Shown here in pieces: positions 28,540-35,705 of a stretch of 64,000 nt of DNA. The stretch is taken from positions 47,138 to 111,137 of the forward strand of contig CACZDU010000001.1 in the NCBI GenBank assembly GCA_902780055.1. Reading direction: 5' to 3'. The notes beneath the pieces are model-generated. The model saw only the letters and a program-made list of their open reading frames with translations. It ran no database searches and was not told where the DNA came from. Numbering within the stretch: position 1 is the first letter of the stretch; each line of letters starts with the position of its first letter. The position numbers and the translations under genes were made by a program. Origin of the DNA: an uncultured Bacteroidia bacterium. GTDB taxonomy: Bacteria > Bacteroidota > Bacteroidia > Bacteroidales > F082.

Positions 28540-31500
28540 ATGAAAAACATTAGTATTATCGCAGTGATTGCCCTGATGATGATGGGCGGGATGACAATGA
28601 AAGCACAAGACTATCATCCTATCGTCGAGGACGGAAAACAATGGAATGTGCTGTTTTCCTATCCGTGGAGTCCGCCGGAGCCACAGCACAAGTACACCGA
28701 CATATACAAAATCGAGGGTGATACGCTGGTGGATGGCATGTCGTACAAAGTGATGTACACCACAAGAAATGAAAACCTTTCAGGTTGGAGCGTTTGTGGT
28801 GTTATCAGAGAAACCGAAGACAAACAAGTTCTCTATCGTAGAGACGGCTCTGCTTACGATGAGATTCTTTATGATTTCTCAATGGAAGTCGGAGATACCA
28901 TTATCATGAGCGGCAATGGGTTTTATCCCAACTGGATGTTTGTCATCGAAACCAATGAGATCCTCGTTAATGGCGAGCCGAGACAACAAATTGTGTTGGA
29001 ATATCCATGGGGTGAACAGGAAATATGGATTGAAGGTATTGGTAGCCTTTACGGGATAATCGATTCGGGTTCGCGGTTTTTGGATGGGGGTTCGACCGAC
29101 CTTCTTTGCTATTATGAAGACGGCGATTTGATTTGGCAGAATACCACTCCAGGGTATAATGAGTGTTATATCGTGAATACAGGGCAGCAGAACGATTTGG
29201 TGGTTACACCTACCGTGCTGACTTTTAACGAGCCTGCCGTGCCGCAAGTTTTCACGATTAGCAACCAAACCAACAATGCCGTCACCATTTCATCCATCAA
29301 TGTGCAACCTGACGACAATGTGGTGCTACTCTCCTTTGAAGGTCTGCCCCGCACTTTGCAGCCCAACGAAACCATGAATGTGACAGTGGAAGTGAACACT
29401 ATCGGATACAAAGGCTATAACAATTACAACGTCACCATAGCCACCTCGATTGGCTACAAGCATGTCATCGTCAAGGTCAACGAGGAAGCCTGGGACGAAG
29501 GGCTTCTGTATTTTCCTATGCAAGGGGTTACTTTCGATGAAAACACCCCTTTGACGCAATCCTTCTACCTGCACAACACCAATGCCCTGCAAAGCATCAC
29601 CATCTATGAGATTCGCGAATACGGCACCAACTATCTTGAAATGCTGCCTTCGCCCAGCCTGCCTTACGAAATCCCGGCGGGAGGCTTTCTTGAGGTTGCG
29701 GTCTCTTTGGTCAATTTCCCTGAAGAGCAAACCGTGACACACCTCTATTGTCGCAGTTCCGAAGGCGAAGGAAGCGGTTATTTCTTCTTTATTGCTGGAG
29801 GCCTTTCAAACGGCGGCAATGTGGTGCATAGCCTTTGGAAGCCCCTTAATCTCCCTGGAATACTTTTAGGTGCAAACGCACAAGGAGACCTGTTCTGTAG
29901 AAATACAGAGGTCTATCCTTCCACATTGGTTCGTTCACAAGACGATGGCGAGACATGGGAAACTGTGTTCGACGGCAGTGTTGGAAATCTCGCCGTCAGC
30001 AACGAAGGAAGGATTTTTGTTTTCAATTATAATACGATGACGGTCATGTATTCTGATGACAACGGCGACACATGGCAACAAACCAACCAAATATCCTCGT
30101 GTGGTTTGATAAGTGTAGCAGGTCTGTATGCTGCAACCAATGACATCGTTGTGGGGTGGACACAAAACAGGGAAATCTTTTGGACGCTTGATGGTGGTGA
30201 GACTTGGGGCTTTTCAGGCCTTGAATTCATGGAAGAACACCAAGAAATCAGCGACCTTCTCGTCAGCGAAAACGGCGATGTGTATGTCAGTGTTTGGTAC
30301 TACATCGGGCCTAACATCGGCGTGTATCATTCCACCCTCTCCGATATGCAGAACTGGGAAATTGCTGCCTTTGAGAATGTTGGCGTGAAAGACATGGCGT
30401 TTGACCCCGAGGGCAACATAGTTTGCGGCGTTAATTTCGGAGGCGATTTTTCGGGTTTCGAGCATGTGCCAGGGTTCTATGCCTTATGGGCAAATCGTGT
30501 GGCCATTGCCGACAACGGCATTGTTTACAAGACCGCAATGAGCATGTATAACAACGCGGTTTTGGCCTATTCCTTGGACCACGGCGAGCATTTCTACAAC
30601 ACCATAGAGAACCTTCCCGTTGAGGAGCCTATTCCCGGCGGCGAAGACGGTTTTCTCTCCAAAGGCTATGACAATCATCTGTATTTCTATGGCAACAGCC
30701 AATACTGGAAAAGCATCCCCAATGCCAACGACATTCCCAATGTGATTGCTTTCCCTTCGGAATGGTACTACGAAATCGAGAACGAGAACGGCAGCATCAC
30801 CTACCAATACATGTATCAGGCAGGCGACACCGTTGTCGGCGATGAGCCTTCGCATATCCTTGTGAAAATCAACACGCTTTACGACAAGGGATTGCGAGAG
30901 GATGTGACACGCGAGTATGTCTATATGCGCGACGGCAAGGTGTATTGGTGGAACAAGACCTTGGAAGAGTTTACCGTGCTGTACGACTTTGGTGCCCAGG
31001 AAGGCGACACTTGGGTCACCAAGGTCGGCACGGAAACCCTCATCATGCACGTCAATTCGGTGGAAACCGTTGAATACGAAGGCAAAACCTATAGGATGCT
31101 TCATGTGAGCGATGTGGACGACTACTTCAGCGGCGACATCGTGTGCGGCATCGGCCACCTGACGAGTTTCTTCCCCGAAAGGCTGATGGACAACGGCGAC
31201 GGTCTGCGCGTGGAAGGCCTGCGCTGCTATTGGATTGAGGACGAACTGGTGTTCAAACCCGGCGACGAGGACTGCGACGCGATTTATTCGGAGGTACACG
31301 GTGTGGAGGAGGACGGCCCTTCGACAGGCTCAGGAACCTTAACGGTTTATCCTAATCCTACCAACGGCGTTCTTACCGTTCATCATTCCGAATTGACTAC
31401 GTCGAATGCTTCGCATTTCCACATTCATCATTCCGAATTTCAAATTGCCAACCTCATGGGCCAAACCGTCCTTTCCGGCAATATTAATGTTGAAAACCAA

Positions 31501-31581
31501 CAGATTGATGTTTCATCGTTGCCTCAAGGGATGTATTTCATTACCGTAGGCGAAGCGACGCGGAAATTTGTGGTGGAATAG
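28540..31581 (+). CDS. T9SS-secreted BNR/Asp-box beta-propeller protein
   Basis: Signal peptide. Asp-box repeats SQDDGETWETV, SDDNGDTWQQ and TLDGGETWGF. Two related flanking domains (..YKIEGDTLVDGMSYKV.. and ..YQAGDTVVGDEPSHIL..). C-terminal LTVYPNPTNGVLTV...LPQGMYFITVGEATRKFVVE is a T9SS CTD. Confidence 0.8.
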   Translation: MKNISIIAVIALMMMGGMTMKAQDYHPIVEDGKQWNVLFSYPWSPPEPQHKYTDIYKIEGDTLVDGMSYKVMYTTRNENLSGWSVCGVIRETEDKQVLYRRDGSAYDEILYDFSMEVGDTIIMSGNGFYPNWMFVIETNEILVNGEPRQQIVLEYPWGEQEIWIEGIGSLYGIIDSGSRFLDGGSTDLLCYYEDGDLIWQNTTPGYNECYIVNTGQQNDLVVTPTVLTFNEPAVPQVFTISNQTNNAVTISSINVQPDDNVVLLSFEGLPRTLQPNETMNVTVEVNTIGYKGYNNYNVTIATSIGYKHVIVKVNEEAWDEGLLYFPMQGVTFDENTPLTQSFYLHNTNALQSITIYEIREYGTNYLEMLPSPSLPYEIPAGGFLEVAVSLVNFPEEQTVTHLYCRSSEGEGSGYFFFIAGGLSNGGNVVHSLWKPLNLPGILLGANAQGDLFCRNTEVYPSTLVRSQDDGETWETVFDGSVGNLAVSNEGRIFVFNYNTMTVMYSDDNGDTWQQTNQISSCGLISVAGLYAATNDIVVGWTQNREIFWTLDGGETWGFSGLEFMEEHQEISDLLVSENGDVYVSVWYYIGPNIGVYHSTLSDMQNWEIAAFENVGVKDMAFDPEGNIVCGVNFGGDFSGFEHVPGFYALWANRVAIADNGIVYKTAMSMYNNAVLAYSLDHGEHFYNTIENLPVEEPIPGGEDGFLSKGYDNHLYFYGNSQYWKSIPNANDIPNVIAFPSEWYYEIENENGSITYQYMYQAGDTVVGDEPSHILVKINTLYDKGLREDVTREYVYMRDGKVYWWNKTLEEFTVLYDFGAQEGDTWVTKVGTETLIMHVNSVETVEYEGKTYRMLHVSDVDDYFSGDIVCGIGHLTSFFPERLMDNGDGLRVEGLRCYWIEDELVFKPGDEDCDAIYSEVHGVEEDGPSTGSGTLTVYPNPTNGVLTVHHSELTTSNASHFHIHHSEFQIANLMGQTVLSGNINVENQQIDVSSLPQGMYFITVGEATRKFVVE

Positions 31582-31633: not shown

Positions 31634-32470
31634 ATGGTACCAGATAACAAGGAAAAATACATCAATCCCTATACCGACTTTGGTTTCAAGAAACTGTTTG
31701 GTACTGAGATGAACAAGGACTTGCTCATCAGTTTTCTCAACGCCCTGTTCAACGGAGAAGAGAAGGAGATAGAGGATGTACTGTACCTCAATGGCGAGAA
31801 TCTGGGCGATGGCTATGGCGACCGCCGTTCCATATTCGATGTCTATTGCACGACAAAGGACGGCAGCCGCTTCATTGTCGAGATGCAGAAGGCCGAGCAG
31901 ACCTATTTCAAGGACCGTAGCATTTACTATGCTACCACACCCATCCGCCAACAGGCGCCAAAAGGGAAGTGGGACTATCATTTAGAGAACGTCTATACTG
32001 TCGGCATCCTTAACTTCGAGTTCCCGAACAATGAATATCCTTCCAATAGTTTTCGCCACGAGATAAAACTGAAGGATGTGGAAGACAACCACGTGTTTTA
32101 CGACAAGTTGACGTTTGTCTATCTCGAAATGCCTAAGTTCAACAAGGTCGAGAACGAATTGGTGACAATGTTCGATAAATGGATGTTTGTGTTGCGTAAT
32201 CTTTCACGTCTGCTCGAGCGCCCCGTAGCCCTGCAAGACCGTGTTTTCAAAAAACTCTTTGAGCAAGCGGAAATCGCAAGGTATTCAGAGACAGAACGCA
32301 GACAGTACGAAGCGAGCCAGAAAGAGTATTGGGACTACACTAGCACACTTGAAACAGCGGAAAGGAAAGGGGTGCTAAGAATTGCCCGTAATATGAAATC
32401 TGATGGTGTGTCGGCAGAAACAATAGTAAAATATACAGGTCTCTCAACTGAAGAAATAGAGTCGTTATAG
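31634..32470 (+). CDS. Rpn-family recombination-promoting nuclease / PDDEXK_2 putative transposase
   Basis: 278 aa. YINPYTDFGFKKLFG N-terminus and DVYC..GSRFIVEMQ core (D..E-x-Q/K), typical of this family. Confidence 0.8.
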   Translation: MVPDNKEKYINPYTDFGFKKLFGTEMNKDLLISFLNALFNGEEKEIEDVLYLNGENLGDGYGDRRSIFDVYCTTKDGSRFIVEMQKAEQTYFKDRSIYYATTPIRQQAPKGKWDYHLENVYTVGILNFEFPNNEYPSNSFRHEIKLKDVEDNHVFYDKLTFVYLEMPKFNKVENELVTMFDKWMFVLRNLSRLLERPVALQDRVFKKLFEQAEIARYSETERRQYEASQKEYWDYTSTLETAERKGVLRIARNMKSDGVSAETIVKYTGLSTEEIESL

Positions 32471-32557: not shown

Positions 32558-33553
32558 ATGAATAAGGACATCGTTTTGAGCGGCATCCGCCCCACTGGAA
32601 ACCTCCACCTCGGCAACTATTACGGTGCCGTGCGCAGCTTCGTGAAGATGCAGGAAGACTACAACTGCTATTTCTTCATCGCCGACTGGCACTCGCTGAC
32701 CACGCACCCCAAGCCCGAAAACATACAGAAATCGGCTCGCACCATCTTGGCCGAATACCTTGCCTGCGGCATCGACCCCGAAAAGGCCACCATCTACATC
32801 CAAAGTGATGTGCCTGAGACGATTGAGCTGTATCTCTATTTCAATATGAACGCCTACATCGGTGAGCTGGGCCGCGTGACCACCTTCAAGGAAAAGGCCC
32901 GCCAACAGCCTGATAATGTGAACGCCGGCTTGTTCACCTACCCGACCTTGATGGCCGCCGACATCCTCCAGCACCGCGCCAAATGGGTGCCCGTGGGCAA
33001 AGACCAAGAGCAGAACATGGAGATGGCCCGCAAGTGCGCCCGCCGTTTCAACAACATCTACGGCATCGAGTTCTTCCCTGAGCCGCAAAACTACTATTTC
33101 GGCGGCGACGCCATCAAAGTGCCCGGCCTCGACGGCAGCGGCAAGATGGGCAAAAGCGACGGCAACTGCATCTACCTCTTCGAGGACGAAAAGACGATGC
33201 GCAAGAAAGTGATGCGCGCCGTCACCGACAGCGGCCCCACCGAGCCGAACAGCCCTAAACCCGAAGTCATCCAAAACCTCTTCACGATGATGAACATCGT
33301 CAGCGAGCCGGAAACGGTGAAATACTTCGATGAGAAATGGAACGACTGCTCCATCCGCTACGGCGACATGAAGAAGCAGTTGGCCGAGGACTTGGAAAAG
33401 ACCGTCGCGCCCATCCGCGAGCGCATCATCGAGTTCTCGTCCGACACTGAACGCTTGGAACGCATCGCCCGCATGGGTGCCGAGAAGGCCCGCGAGAGCG
33501 CGGCGAAGACGCTGAATGAGGTTAGGAAGATTATTGGATTCAGACAGTACTAA
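32558..33553 (+). CDS. trpS: Tryptophan--tRNA ligase
   Basis: 331 aa. SGIRPTGNLHLGNYYG (HIGH-type) and GKMGKSDGN (KMSKS). Confidence 0.95.
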   Translation: MNKDIVLSGIRPTGNLHLGNYYGAVRSFVKMQEDYNCYFFIADWHSLTTHPKPENIQKSARTILAEYLACGIDPEKATIYIQSDVPETIELYLYFNMNAYIGELGRVTTFKEKARQQPDNVNAGLFTYPTLMAADILQHRAKWVPVGKDQEQNMEMARKCARRFNNIYGIEFFPEPQNYYFGGDAIKVPGLDGSGKMGKSDGNCIYLFEDEKTMRKKVMRAVTDSGPTEPNSPKPEVIQNLFTMMNIVSEPETVKYFDEKWNDCSIRYGDMKKQLAEDLEKTVAPIRERIIEFSSDTERLERIARMGAEKARESAAKTLNEVRKIIGFRQY

Positions 33554-33643
33554 TTAAGGTCGCTTTGCGTCATTGCGAGGAGGAACGACGAAGCAATCTA
33601 TGACAAAATATTGATTAGATTAGTATTATTGTCAAAATAAGCG

Positions 33644-33651
33644 TATTTTTG
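33644..33651 (+). promoter_or_regulatory. -7 promoter box (TATTTTTG) for the ATPase/nuclease cassette
   Basis: Lies 26 nt upstream of the ATG at 33677, so the cassette appears to have its own promoter. Confidence 0.45.
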
Positions 33652-33676
33652 CAACGATTATTTGATATTAAATGAA

Positions 33677-34963
33677 ATGAATAAAGTCAGTATCAAAATA
33701 AATGAATTAGGTCCTGTCAAAAACCAAGAGATTGAGTTGAAGCCAGTCATGTTGTTTACTGGAGAATCAAGTTTGGGCAAAAGTTATGTCAATTTCTTGG
33801 CGTATTATTTGTTTTATGTTTTTTCTTCGGAAAGGATGTTCGATTTTTTGTTGGAAAAGATAGGGAGTGAAGTCAACGATAAAAAGGAGTTTTCGTTTGA
33901 CTTGAAATCAGCAGACTTAATCGATTGGATGCAGAAAGATGTTAGAAAGTTTTTTGTCTATTTATACAATTTTGATGATTTCAGGTGTGATGTCAAGTTT
34001 GATTTCAAGAATGTTGAAGACAGTTTTGCCATTAAATATACTCGAGTTGATGCCAAAAACGACAAAGACAAAGAGTTTTTTTATGCATTTAACATCGAAA
34101 TAAATGGTGAAAGAATAAGGTCGAGTGCCTATTATCAGCAACGTTTTGAAAAAGCTATCTGTCGTACAATAAGTCAACAGTTGTGTCATAGTTTTTTGGG
34201 TATAAATATTCAACTCTCCTTTTTATTGCCTCCGGGAAGGGCTTCTTTATTGACGGGCGACTATACTGCGCAGCGAGGATCGAGTAATCTTGGACTATAC
34301 GATCTTTTTCTTCGTGATAACGATAGAATAAATAATTCTGTTTTATTCAATAGATTGGTAGGGGGCAAACAGAATGAATTTTTTGTTTCCCAGATTCATA
34401 ATCTAATCAAAGGGGACTTGCTGATGGAAAAAGACAACCTTTTCTTGGTTACCGAAGACCATCAAAGAATCCCATTGGGAGCTGCTGCTTCTTCCATCAA
34501 AGAATTGACTCCTCTATTGCAGTTGATTTTGGGAGGTTCCATATCCAATACTGCCATCTGTATTGAGGAGCCGGAGGCGCATCTGCATCCGGAAATGCAG
34601 ATTTCCATAGTCGATTTGCTTTCTGCTTGCATTAATGAGAATGCCTTTATGCAGATTACCACCCACAGTGACTATTTCTTACAGCGCGTAAACCAATTGC
34701 TGAAGTATGGCTGTATCAAGGGATTGAATCCAAATAGGTATCAGGAGATTTGTGATGAAACCGGGCATCGTCCTGAGCATTATCTTGACAGAGACAATGT
34801 GGGTGCTTATTTCTTCTCGTCTGAAAACGGGAAAACCAAAATAGAGTCGTTGACCATCGGGAAGAAAGGGATACCGATGACGACTTTTTTCAATGCTGTC
34901 GGAATGTTGTCCAAAGAAGACGAGGCTCTTGATGATGAACTTGAAAAACTGGGTCAGGAATAA
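33677..34963 (+). CDS. ABC/OLD-type ATPase (AAA_15/AAA_21-like), gene A of candidate two-gene defence cassette
   Basis: The ORF track begins at a TTG (33662); the first ATG is at 33677 (MNKVSIK..). Motifs: Walker A FTGESSLGKS, signature-like PLGAAASSIKELTPLL, Walker B/D-loop AICIEEPEAHLHPEMQ, H-loop ITTHSD. Strongly AT-rich relative to the flanks. Confidence 0.8.
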   Translation: MNKVSIKINELGPVKNQEIELKPVMLFTGESSLGKSYVNFLAYYLFYVFSSERMFDFLLEKIGSEVNDKKEFSFDLKSADLIDWMQKDVRKFFVYLYNFDDFRCDVKFDFKNVEDSFAIKYTRVDAKNDKDKEFFYAFNIEINGERIRSSAYYQQRFEKAICRTISQQLCHSFLGINIQLSFLLPPGRASLLTGDYTAQRGSSNLGLYDLFLRDNDRINNSVLFNRLVGGKQNEFFVSQIHNLIKGDLLMEKDNLFLVTEDHQRIPLGAAASSIKELTPLLQLILGGSISNTAICIEEPEAHLHPEMQISIVDLLSACINENAFMQITTHSDYFLQRVNQLLKYGCIKGLNPNRYQEICDETGHRPEHYLDRDNVGAYFFSSENGKTKIESLTIGKKGIPMTTFFNAVGMLSKEDEALDDELEKLGQE

Positions 34964-35661
34964 TGTTTAATGTACGAGACTTACAGCAGTTTTATAATCC
35001 TTCGTATTTTGGTATCAACGATAACCAGTATATATGGAAGGAGAGCGGTCAGACGGATCCAACTGCGTTAGCATCTGTTAAGTTTGTCTTTCAAGGAGGA
35101 ACAATAAGTTATGTGAAATCAAACTTGTTGAAAGAAATGAAAGATGCTTATAGGACGGATTCAACTAAATCGCTTAATCTTAGAAAGATTTGTGATGGGC
35201 TGTTGTTTCTTGATAGAGAAGAAGAGCATTATCTCATCATTCTTGAAGTTAAATCTGGATTTAAGGAGGTGAAAAATAAGGCAATCGGACAAATTCCCGC
35301 TTCATATATAAAAGCCCAATCCATATTAAATGACTTTTCGTCATTCAATATGAATGATTACAAAGCGTTTGGATTGATTATCAGTTATCCATATATTGTG
35401 AAGCCGCCAACTGATGCCGAAAACAATCCTTTGGTATGGGAGAACAAAGAGATAATGACAGAAGACATTTTCGCAAAGTATAACCGGTTATTGAGGAATC
35501 ATCAAAAAGCGGATTTTATTGGTAACGATTTTGGGTTTGATCAACTGACCCAGGTCAAACAAGACTTGTTGTTCGATAAGTTGAAAGTCAGACATTATCC
35601 TGTAAACAATCATTGTGTCAATGCAGAGATTGACTTGGATGTTGTTATCGGGACTTTGTAG
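34963..35661 (+). CDS. PD-(D/E)xK-like (restriction-endonuclease-fold) protein, gene B of candidate cassette
   Basis: 232 aa. Its ATG overlaps the stop of gene A (TAATG at 34961..34965). KICDGLLFLDREEEHYLIILEVKSGFKEVKNKAIGQI fits the D ... E-x-K core strands. No HNH or Toprim (E..DxD) motifs seen. Confidence 0.55.
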   Translation: MFNVRDLQQFYNPSYFGINDNQYIWKESGQTDPTALASVKFVFQGGTISYVKSNLLKEMKDAYRTDSTKSLNLRKICDGLLFLDREEEHYLIILEVKSGFKEVKNKAIGQIPASYIKAQSILNDFSSFNMNDYKAFGLIISYPYIVKPPTDAENNPLVWENKEIMTEDIFAKYNRLLRNHQKADFIGNDFGFDQLTQVKQDLLFDKLKVRHYPVNNHCVNAEIDLDVVIGTL

Positions 35662-35705
35662 AACAGTTACAGTTTTTTGTGCATTTCTATAATTATGCAG
35701 ACACT

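Follow-up and report, generated by a model that had tools for sequence, protein, structure and literature searches.

PD-T4-4 of Escherichia coli consists of an AAA_15 P-loop ATPase and a PD-(D/E)XK nuclease (Vassallo 2022, PMC9519451), and WonAB, carried by the WASA-1 prophage of Vibrio cholerae, consists of an overcoming lysogenization defect (OLD)-type ATP-binding cassette (ABC) ATPase and a variant PD-(D/E)xK nuclease (Nat Microbiol 2025, PMC12137116). WonAB acts through abortive infection, with translation shut down while the genomic DNA remains intact and the phage DNA goes on replicating (PMC12137116). Mutation identified K34, R182, E300 and H333 as essential residues of WonA, and the WonA C-terminal extension is predicted to bind the nuclease (PMC12137116). 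Overproduced WonB is toxic only together with active WonA, and a simple antitoxin model was excluded (PMC12137116). Purified EcPD-T4-4 forms higher-order complexes and cleaved 0 of 11 DNA substrates. The WonAB authors link WonAB and PD-T4-4 to an "OLD-ABC ATPase + novel REase" (restriction endonuclease) operon present in ~1% of genomes (PMC12137116). Here, we describe a two-gene cassette inserted between trpS and hflX of an uncultured Bacteroidia bacterium (Bacteroidales, F082; GenBank assembly GCA_902780055.1, contig CACZDU010000001.1, positions 47,138 to 111,137 of the forward strand; this 64,000-nucleotide stretch is referred to as the window). Judged by sequence comparison, both of its proteins are divergent Bacteroidales members of the WonAB/PD-T4-4 supergroup, and the cassette is probably an anti-phage defence system of this type. 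The cassette and its flanks are as follows:

32558-33553, + strand: trpS, the left-flanking core gene (Pfam tRNA-synt_1b, 5e-65)
33554-35705, + strand: the complete cassette (2152 bp; G+C, 36.8%), inserted after the trpS stop codon and before the hflX ATG
33677-34963, + strand: gene A, an OLD-type ABC ATPase of 428 aa
34963-35661, + strand: gene B, a predicted divergent PD-(D/E)xK (restriction-endonuclease-fold) effector of 232 aa
35706-36899, + strand: hflX, the right-flanking core gene (Pfam GTP-bdg_N/M and MMR_HSR1)

An earlier note on this DNA, made from the letters alone, had described two overlapping open reading frames between trpS and hflX, and these were found as described, both on the + strand and translationally coupled through one shared base in TAATG. 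The start of gene A was placed at the ATG rather than at the upstream TTG 33662 because its homologues measure 426-428 aa. The motifs of gene A are located as follows:

33761-33784: Walker A, residues 29-36, including K35
34238-34240: R188, which replaces the Q-loop glutamine
34475-34507: signature-like LGAAASSIKEL, residues 267-277
34553-34576: Walker B, residues 293-300, including E297/E298
34664-34666: H-loop H330, within ITTHSD (residues 327-332)
about residues 340-428: C-terminal extension

The assignment of gene A to the AAA_15/AAA_21-type ABC ATPases was borne out by Pfam matches above the cutoffs (AAA_15, 1.8e-11; AAA_21, 2.8e-8), and every motif that had been quoted for it is present, including the Walker B/D-loop AICIEEPEAHLHPEMQ at residues 293-308. 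In a 45-sequence alignment the invariant positions include G29, G34-K35-S36, P185-x-G187-R188-A-S, A269-x-A271-S-S, E297-E298-P-E-A-H302 and T329-H330-S-D-Y; K35, R188 (within PPGRAS), residues 267-277, IEEPEAHLHP and H330 are all invariant among the homologues. The AlphaFold2 (AF2) model of gene A (predicted local distance difference test (pLDDT), 88.7; predicted template modelling (TM) score (pTM), 0.89) was searched with Foldseek, and its nearest structures were PtuA of Septu together with retron effectors (E about 1e-10, TM about 0.4), followed by SMC and Rad50 heads. These nearest folds place gene A with the ABC ATPases around OLD and PtuA, and no close structure of it is solved; in sequence searches of the PDB the best match of gene A was PtuA at E 0.024, and the gene A profile gave no matches.

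For comparison with WonAB, a WonA profile was prepared from 8 sequences in the supplement of the WonAB paper, in which the published WonA sequences are cut off at ~400 aa, short of the extreme C-terminus. Hmmsearch with this profile gave 114 bits for gene A, aligning residues 5-388 with profile positions 3-396 of 409, so that the two ATPases align end to end, with most of the C-terminal extension included. Walker A, the arginine loop (PAsRs in WonA, PPGRAS in gene A), the signature, IEEPEAHL and TTHS all fall in register, and K35, R188, E298 and H330 of gene A are the counterparts of the essential WonA residues K34, R182, E300 and H333. BLASTP of gene A against two WonA homologues gave E-values of 3e-10 (alignment to residue 398) and 5e-13 (to residue 419), both reaching inside the C-terminal extension that the two ATPases have in common. 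Unlike this shared layout, identity between the ATPases is only ~26-28% over the C-terminal half, and the family-specific PPGRAS string was not found among the sequences examined from the homologue table of the WonAB paper (PMC12137116).

The best PADLOC match of gene A, by a wide margin, was PD-T4-4_A (2.7e-29), and the literature names a PD-(D/E)XK nuclease as the partner of that ATPase; the score of 100.7 bits, for which no curated cutoff is provided, is split over two stretches and suggests a remote relative, not a member of the family. It was followed by PDC-M47A (1.9e-19), NsnB, AriA (2.4e-14), GajA (4e-9) and PtuA (4e-8). Gene A is roughly as distant from WonA as it is from PD-T4-4_A.

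The conserved positions of gene B, and the part by which it differs most from WonB, are as follows:

35041-35043: E27
35191-35196: C77-D78
35245-35256: E95-V-K97-S98
35290-35292: Q110
residues 146-232: extra C-terminal part of ~85 residues, absent from WonB

A word-indexed search with gene B found 53 close relatives at ≥50% identity, all of ~230 aa and unannotated, and a profile search across 1.84 billion representatives returned 165 clusters at E ≤ 1e-3 and 76 at E ≤ 1e-10, nearly all of 210-250 aa. Across 83 gene B relatives (15-49% identity), neither D78 nor K97 varies, and conservation is ≥90% at E27, C77, E95, S98 and Q110. The earlier note had proposed a D...E-x-K restriction-endonuclease core: the PD-(D/E)xK signature stands as CD78...E95-x-K97...Q110, while the spacer between KICDGLLFLD and YLIILEVKSG measures 5 residues instead of 10, and the catalytic aspartate, which had been taken as D84, was reassigned to D78 as the one conserved in the relatives. 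Canonical PD-(D/E)xK domains have an alpha-beta-beta-beta-alpha-beta layout in which the aspartate opens strand 2, (D/E)xK lies in strand 3 and the catalytic residues cluster. In the AF2 model of gene B (pLDDT, 91.1; pTM, 0.90), D78 stands just ahead of strand 79-85, E95-x-K97 closes strand 88-96, Q110 lies within the next long helix, and a further strand spans residues 134-141. The motif and the predicted secondary-structure register therefore fit the canonical layout.

Gene B was also compared with aligned WonB (8) and "novel REase" (3) proteins from the same supplement. In these 11 sequences D, CD, ELK and Q are invariant, and the D-to-E spacing is 17 residues, the same as in gene B, giving both families a CD-x16-E-x-K...A-x-x-Q core. 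Profile-profile alignment of the gene B superfamily with these proteins by hhalign gave 96.6% probability (E 6.7e-10), with the gene B close family alone reaching 88%; the aligned columns include C77-D78, E95-x-K97, A107...Q110 and the following strand, and K97 corresponds to the lysine that is essential in WonB. When the 83 gene B relatives were searched, 22 matched PD-T4-4_B, 21 PDC-M29B and 12 PDC-M47B, always over the catalytic core, with PD-T4-4_B matches of the distant relatives between 1e-6 and 1e-2. Among these relatives is the effector of a Mediterranea pair, which matches PD-T4-4_B at 4.8e-4 and shares 24% identity with gene B (E 1e-17); the ATPase of that pair is 41% identical to gene A and matches PD-T4-4_A at 2.6e-34. 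The WonA profile, BLASTP, hhalign and the PD-T4-4_B matches of the relatives together place both proteins in the supergroup.

This placement bears on the suggestion of the earlier note that such a pairing has not been named. The design of the pair is found in PD-T4-4, in WonAB and in the "OLD-ABC ATPase + novel REase" operon, and both proteins are detectably homologous to those of these systems, so the claim of novelty largely falls. The cassette does not represent a novel class of system; its family was described between 2020 and 2025, and novelty lies at the level of the subfamily. What is new here is a larger effector missed by current hidden Markov models (HMMs), trpS-hflX alleles with and without the insert, and an apparent association with capsule loci.

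Several observations weigh against a plain WonAB/PD-T4-4-type assignment. The link of gene B to PD-T4-4_B and WonB is transitive or made between profiles, and covers only ~72-100 core columns. Gene B itself was assigned to no PADLOC, NCBIfam, PHROGs or Pfam family, with 0 PADLOC matches at E ≤ 1 and hence none to PD-T4-4_B. At 232 aa it is longer by ~60-85 residues than WonB (about 143-172 aa), with a longer N-terminal hairpin and the extra C-terminal residues, and the conserved upstream aspartate of WonB (in DGC) is without an aligned counterpart in gene B, where E27 is conserved instead. The signature of gene A is degenerate (AAASSIKE versus SSGQQ in WonA). No homologue of gene A was found by tblastn in phage genomes. 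Finally, in Foldseek searches of PDB and BFVD, no structure matched the gene B model at E ≤ 1e-3 (TM about 0.2-0.27). The top weak PDB matches are nearly all PD-(D/E)xK nucleases (BsmI at 4e-3, PaqCI, N.BspD6I, XisH, PfoI, FokI, LmuA, Cap4 and HamA). The nuclease fold predicted for gene B thus has good support from motif and register, and weak support from the structural search. A PDB sequence search with the gene B protein and profile returned nothing useful. Direct family leads for gene B were rejected (Pfam Lipoprotein_22, sub-threshold; NCBIfam Alw26I, only 0.059).

The DNA endonucleases among these weak neighbours (BsmI, PaqCI, N.BspD6I, FokI, LmuA and HamA) raise the alternative that, within the same architecture, gene B is licensed by gene A to degrade phage or host DNA, with or without abortive infection. 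Other systems of a PD-(D/E)XK nuclease and an NTPase (AbpAB, Hachiman and PD-T4-8) degrade DNA in vitro, and the extra C-terminal region of gene B could be a DNA-binding module. Against it stand the intact genomic DNA under WonB toxicity, the continued replication of phage DNA, and the failure of EcPD-T4-4 to cleave any of its DNA substrates, and we regard a DNA target as unlikely.

Other named systems were also compared. Septu (PtuA and PtuB), PARIS (AriA and AriB) and Gabija (GajA) likewise pair or fuse an OLD/ABC-type ATPase sensor with a nuclease, but the cassette is without an HNH or Toprim effector, as the earlier note had stated for gene B and as family searches of both proteins confirmed, and the sequence likeness is limited to the Walker B/H-loop region. 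Septu was rejected since no HNH is present and PtuA matches are low (NCBIfam PtuA, 20 bits versus a cutoff of 500; the PADLOC and PDB values for PtuA are given above). PARIS, Gabija and OLD were rejected since no Toprim is present in A or B and the AriA and GajA matches cover the ATPase core only. The PADLOC candidates PDC-M47 and PDC-M29 resemble the cassette in that gene A matches PDC-M47A and gene B relatives match PDC-M47B (best 3.5e-8) and PDC-M29B (best 3e-6); they differ in that gene B has no direct match, and both are to our knowledge only predictions by computation, for which no mechanism is described. Detection in the manner of PADLOC that needs both genes would probably miss the cassette.

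Linkage of the two genes was assessed in nine contexts (the window and the related loci L008, L001-4, L087/88, L089/90, L091, L093/94, L095/96 and L097/98). Gene A lies directly upstream of gene B in all nine, overlapping or ≤13 bp apart, at identities down to 41% (A) and 24% (B), and the pair often stands beside defence genes; homologues of A and B are thus linked elsewhere, as an uncharacterised defence system had been expected to show. Neighbours include ThsB (1e-69), AbiH (2.9e-25), a SEC-C protein, PDC-M12A/B, Hachiman HamA with a helicase, an HD-domain protein, tyrosine integrases, a RelA_SpoT protein and a KAP NTPase. In at least four of the nine contexts (L001-L004, L087/L088, L091 and L095/L096) the pair lies within a capsular-polysaccharide locus, between glycosyltransferase genes, and the pair of L097/L098 is near DegT/Poly_export. 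In the capsule loci of L001/L002 it occurs together with ThsB, AbiH and PDC-M12. We found no paper on defence genes embedded in Bacteroidales capsule loci. Tblastn of gene A against plasmids gave two weak partial matches only. The pair shares with WonAB a two-gene operon organisation and a patchy, mobile and defence-associated distribution; the cassette differs from it in being chromosomal, at a junction of core genes, where WonAB is on a prophage.

A trio of genes was also observed 3' of A-B in two unrelated contexts (L001, 10936-15152; L097, 10933-15385), encoding proteins of ~500 aa (no Pfam match), 572-647 aa and 309-313 aa. In L001 the protein of the 572-647-aa class has a SEC-C motif and that of the 309-313-aa class is AbiH. 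This trio may be a co-travelling defence module.

The earlier note had also called the cassette a discrete, AT-rich insertion, and its limits of 33554-35705 are identical to the insertion boundaries. G+C is 0.368 in the insert versus 0.499 in the window and 0.564 in trpS, and G+C at third codon positions (GC3) is 0.41 for A and 0.39 for B versus 0.82 for trpS and 0.70 for hflX; the A-B pair is AT-rich in all hosts compared (0.31-0.42 G+C). The contig is an ENA metagenome scaffold, and a TrpS-based scan of species-representative genomes showed that the host is an uncultured Bacteroidales bacterium of rumen or gut (F082 / "Ca. Limimorpha"-like metagenome-assembled genomes). In ~30 related species trpS and hflX were adjacent, mostly 3-176 bp apart. 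The empty junction was sought in these relatives and found in L007, where the trpS/hflX DNA is 95% identical (protein, 100%/99%) and the two genes overlap as TAATG. Because the two genes of L007 have nothing between them, the insert can be delimited exactly; the junction is also empty, with the TAATG overlap, in L010 and L029. The cassette is therefore a horizontally acquired two-gene insertion. The start of hflX, which had been set at GTG 35679, was corrected to ATG 35706, where the conserved MGDFITYEK start begins.

Elsewhere, the cassette was found at this junction only in L008 (RUG11609), with A 98% and B 91% identical at the amino acid level and ~93% nucleotide identity. Between the window (33677-35661) and L008 (5605-7589), gene A has a ratio of nonsynonymous to synonymous substitution (dN/dS) of 0.10 and gene B one of 0.31, and both genes are therefore under purifying selection. 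The synonymous divergence (dS) is 0.11 for A and 0.16 for B, compared with 0.33 for trpS and 0.47 for hflX. As the cassette dS is two to four times below that of the flanks, these values, which base composition may bias, hint that the cassette was exchanged horizontally more recently than the flanks diverged.

Two further features lie in the left non-coding end of the insert:

33558-33599, + strand: left arm of a palindromic repetitive extragenic palindromic (REP)-like element, lying at the insert's left edge; L017 has the palindrome intact at the same junction
33644-33651, + strand: TATTTTTG, a -7-type box 25 nt 5' of the gene A ATG

In L017 the junction (about 2245-2350) holds the full REP-like element, CGTCATTGCGAGGAGG.ACGACGAAGCAATC together with the inverted copy, and L012 (5994-6168) holds a different palindrome. 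The window and L008 keep only the left arm of the L017-type palindrome, which is single-copy in the window and directly abuts the AT-rich cargo, and this suggests that the cargo entered at the palindrome or replaced half of it.

Other relatives carry different cargo at the same position: RelB+PIN in L009 (5994-6856), YoeB-type toxin pairs in L020 (5994-6678) and L016 (5988-8547), HicAB in L028 (2649-3126) and a pair with an S41 peptidase in L018 (5994-8116). The trpS-hflX junction is thus a small cargo hotspot between translationally coupled core genes in this Bacteroidales clade. The toxin-antitoxin (TA) modules of these sister species invite the reading of the cassette as an addiction module, in which a toxin B is restrained by the ATPase A without a dedicated anti-phage role; AAA_21 is also the "AbiEii/type IV TA" Pfam family, and overproduced WonB is toxic. 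We consider this very unlikely, given that the simple antitoxin model was excluded for WonAB, in which WonB needs active WonA for toxicity, that the best matches of the gene A family are defence-system ATPases, and that the neighbours in other contexts are defence genes.

The occurrence of the cassette in unrelated contexts, several without a linked integrase, could also be explained by a self-mobilising element whose nuclease and ATPase act like TnsA and TnsC of Tn7. The boundaries speak against this, as neither terminal inverted repeats nor target-site duplications were found there, and on these grounds a transposon-like reading was rejected. Moreover, the insert contains no DDE or other transposase, its non-coding ends are only ~120 nt (left, partly the host repeat element) and ~44 nt (right), and its homology is to defence ATPases and not to TnsC. 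Self-mobilisation is accordingly the least credible of the explanations, and we give it next to no weight.

The Bacteroidetes -7 promoter consensus is TAnnTTTG. The earlier note had given the cassette a -7 box of its own: TATTTTTG is present and conforms to this consensus, but the strict -33/-7 pattern (TTTG-N17-23-TAnnTTTG) had no match upstream of gene A. Because the full pattern is unmatched, a gene A promoter at TATTTTTG is weakly evidenced and only plausible. Sigma-70-type promoter matches were set aside as not informative for this phylum. No + strand terminator was found between gene B and hflX, consistent with continued read-through into hflX from upstream.

Two genes upstream of the cassette were recorded as separate observations. 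Directly 5' of trpS, the window encodes an Rpn-family "PD-(D/E)XK nuclease family transposase" (31634-32470, + strand; PDDEXK_2, 3.7e-77). This gene is an indel, the equivalent interval of L007 being 78 bp, and among 80 related loci it was found (100% amino acid identity) only in L008, which also shares the cassette; trpS is therefore flanked by two independent accessory insertions. Further upstream (28540-31581, + strand) is a gene for a secreted protein of 1013 aa with a Por_Secre_tail (type IX secretion system sorting domain). The 3' part of this gene has matches in L007 and L008 that are duplicated or rearranged, and the gene family appears variable between close relatives.

Taken together, the OLD-type catalytic set of A, the core of B, the A-B linkage, the mobility of the pair and its defence neighbours argue for a WonAB/PD-T4-4-type two-gene defence system. 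By analogy with WonAB, A would dimerise around two ATP sites and receive B on the C-terminal extensions of the dimer. B would be active only in the presence of a functional A, licensed by a cue from the phage and by the binding and hydrolysis of ATP in A, and its nuclease activity would then arrest the infected cell by abortive infection. RNA (tRNA or rRNA) is the leading guess for the target of B because WonAB shuts down translation with genomic DNA intact, and the inactivity of EcPD-T4-4 on the DNA tested is consistent with this view. Should the cassette be a defence system of this type, we put an RNA-targeting abortive mechanism at an even chance or somewhat less.

The extra ~85 C-terminal residues may help B to recognise its target or a partner. 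A bolder reading is that the Bacteroidales subfamily is functionally distinct from WonAB/PD-T4-4, with the C-terminal module and E27 possibly giving a new substrate or trigger, and with placement in capsule loci possibly tying capsule variation to intracellular defence, beyond hitch-hiking in a recombination hotspot; we hold this to be decidedly doubtful.

As a probable defence system of the WonAB/PD-T4-4 type, the cassette adds a gut/rumen Bacteroidales branch to the family of OLD-type ABC ATPases paired with restriction-fold nucleases, in which a mechanistic phenotype is available only for WonAB and no structure has been solved; it does not overturn current understanding of this family. Because the effector HMMs of PADLOC (PD-T4-4_B, PDC-M29B and PDC-M47B) miss gene B, the family is probably under-counted in Bacteroidales by annotation pipelines. 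The occupied and empty trpS-hflX alleles offer a natural, isogenic-like comparison, and small hotspots of toxin-antitoxin and defence cargo come into view at the trpS-hflX junction and in the capsule loci.

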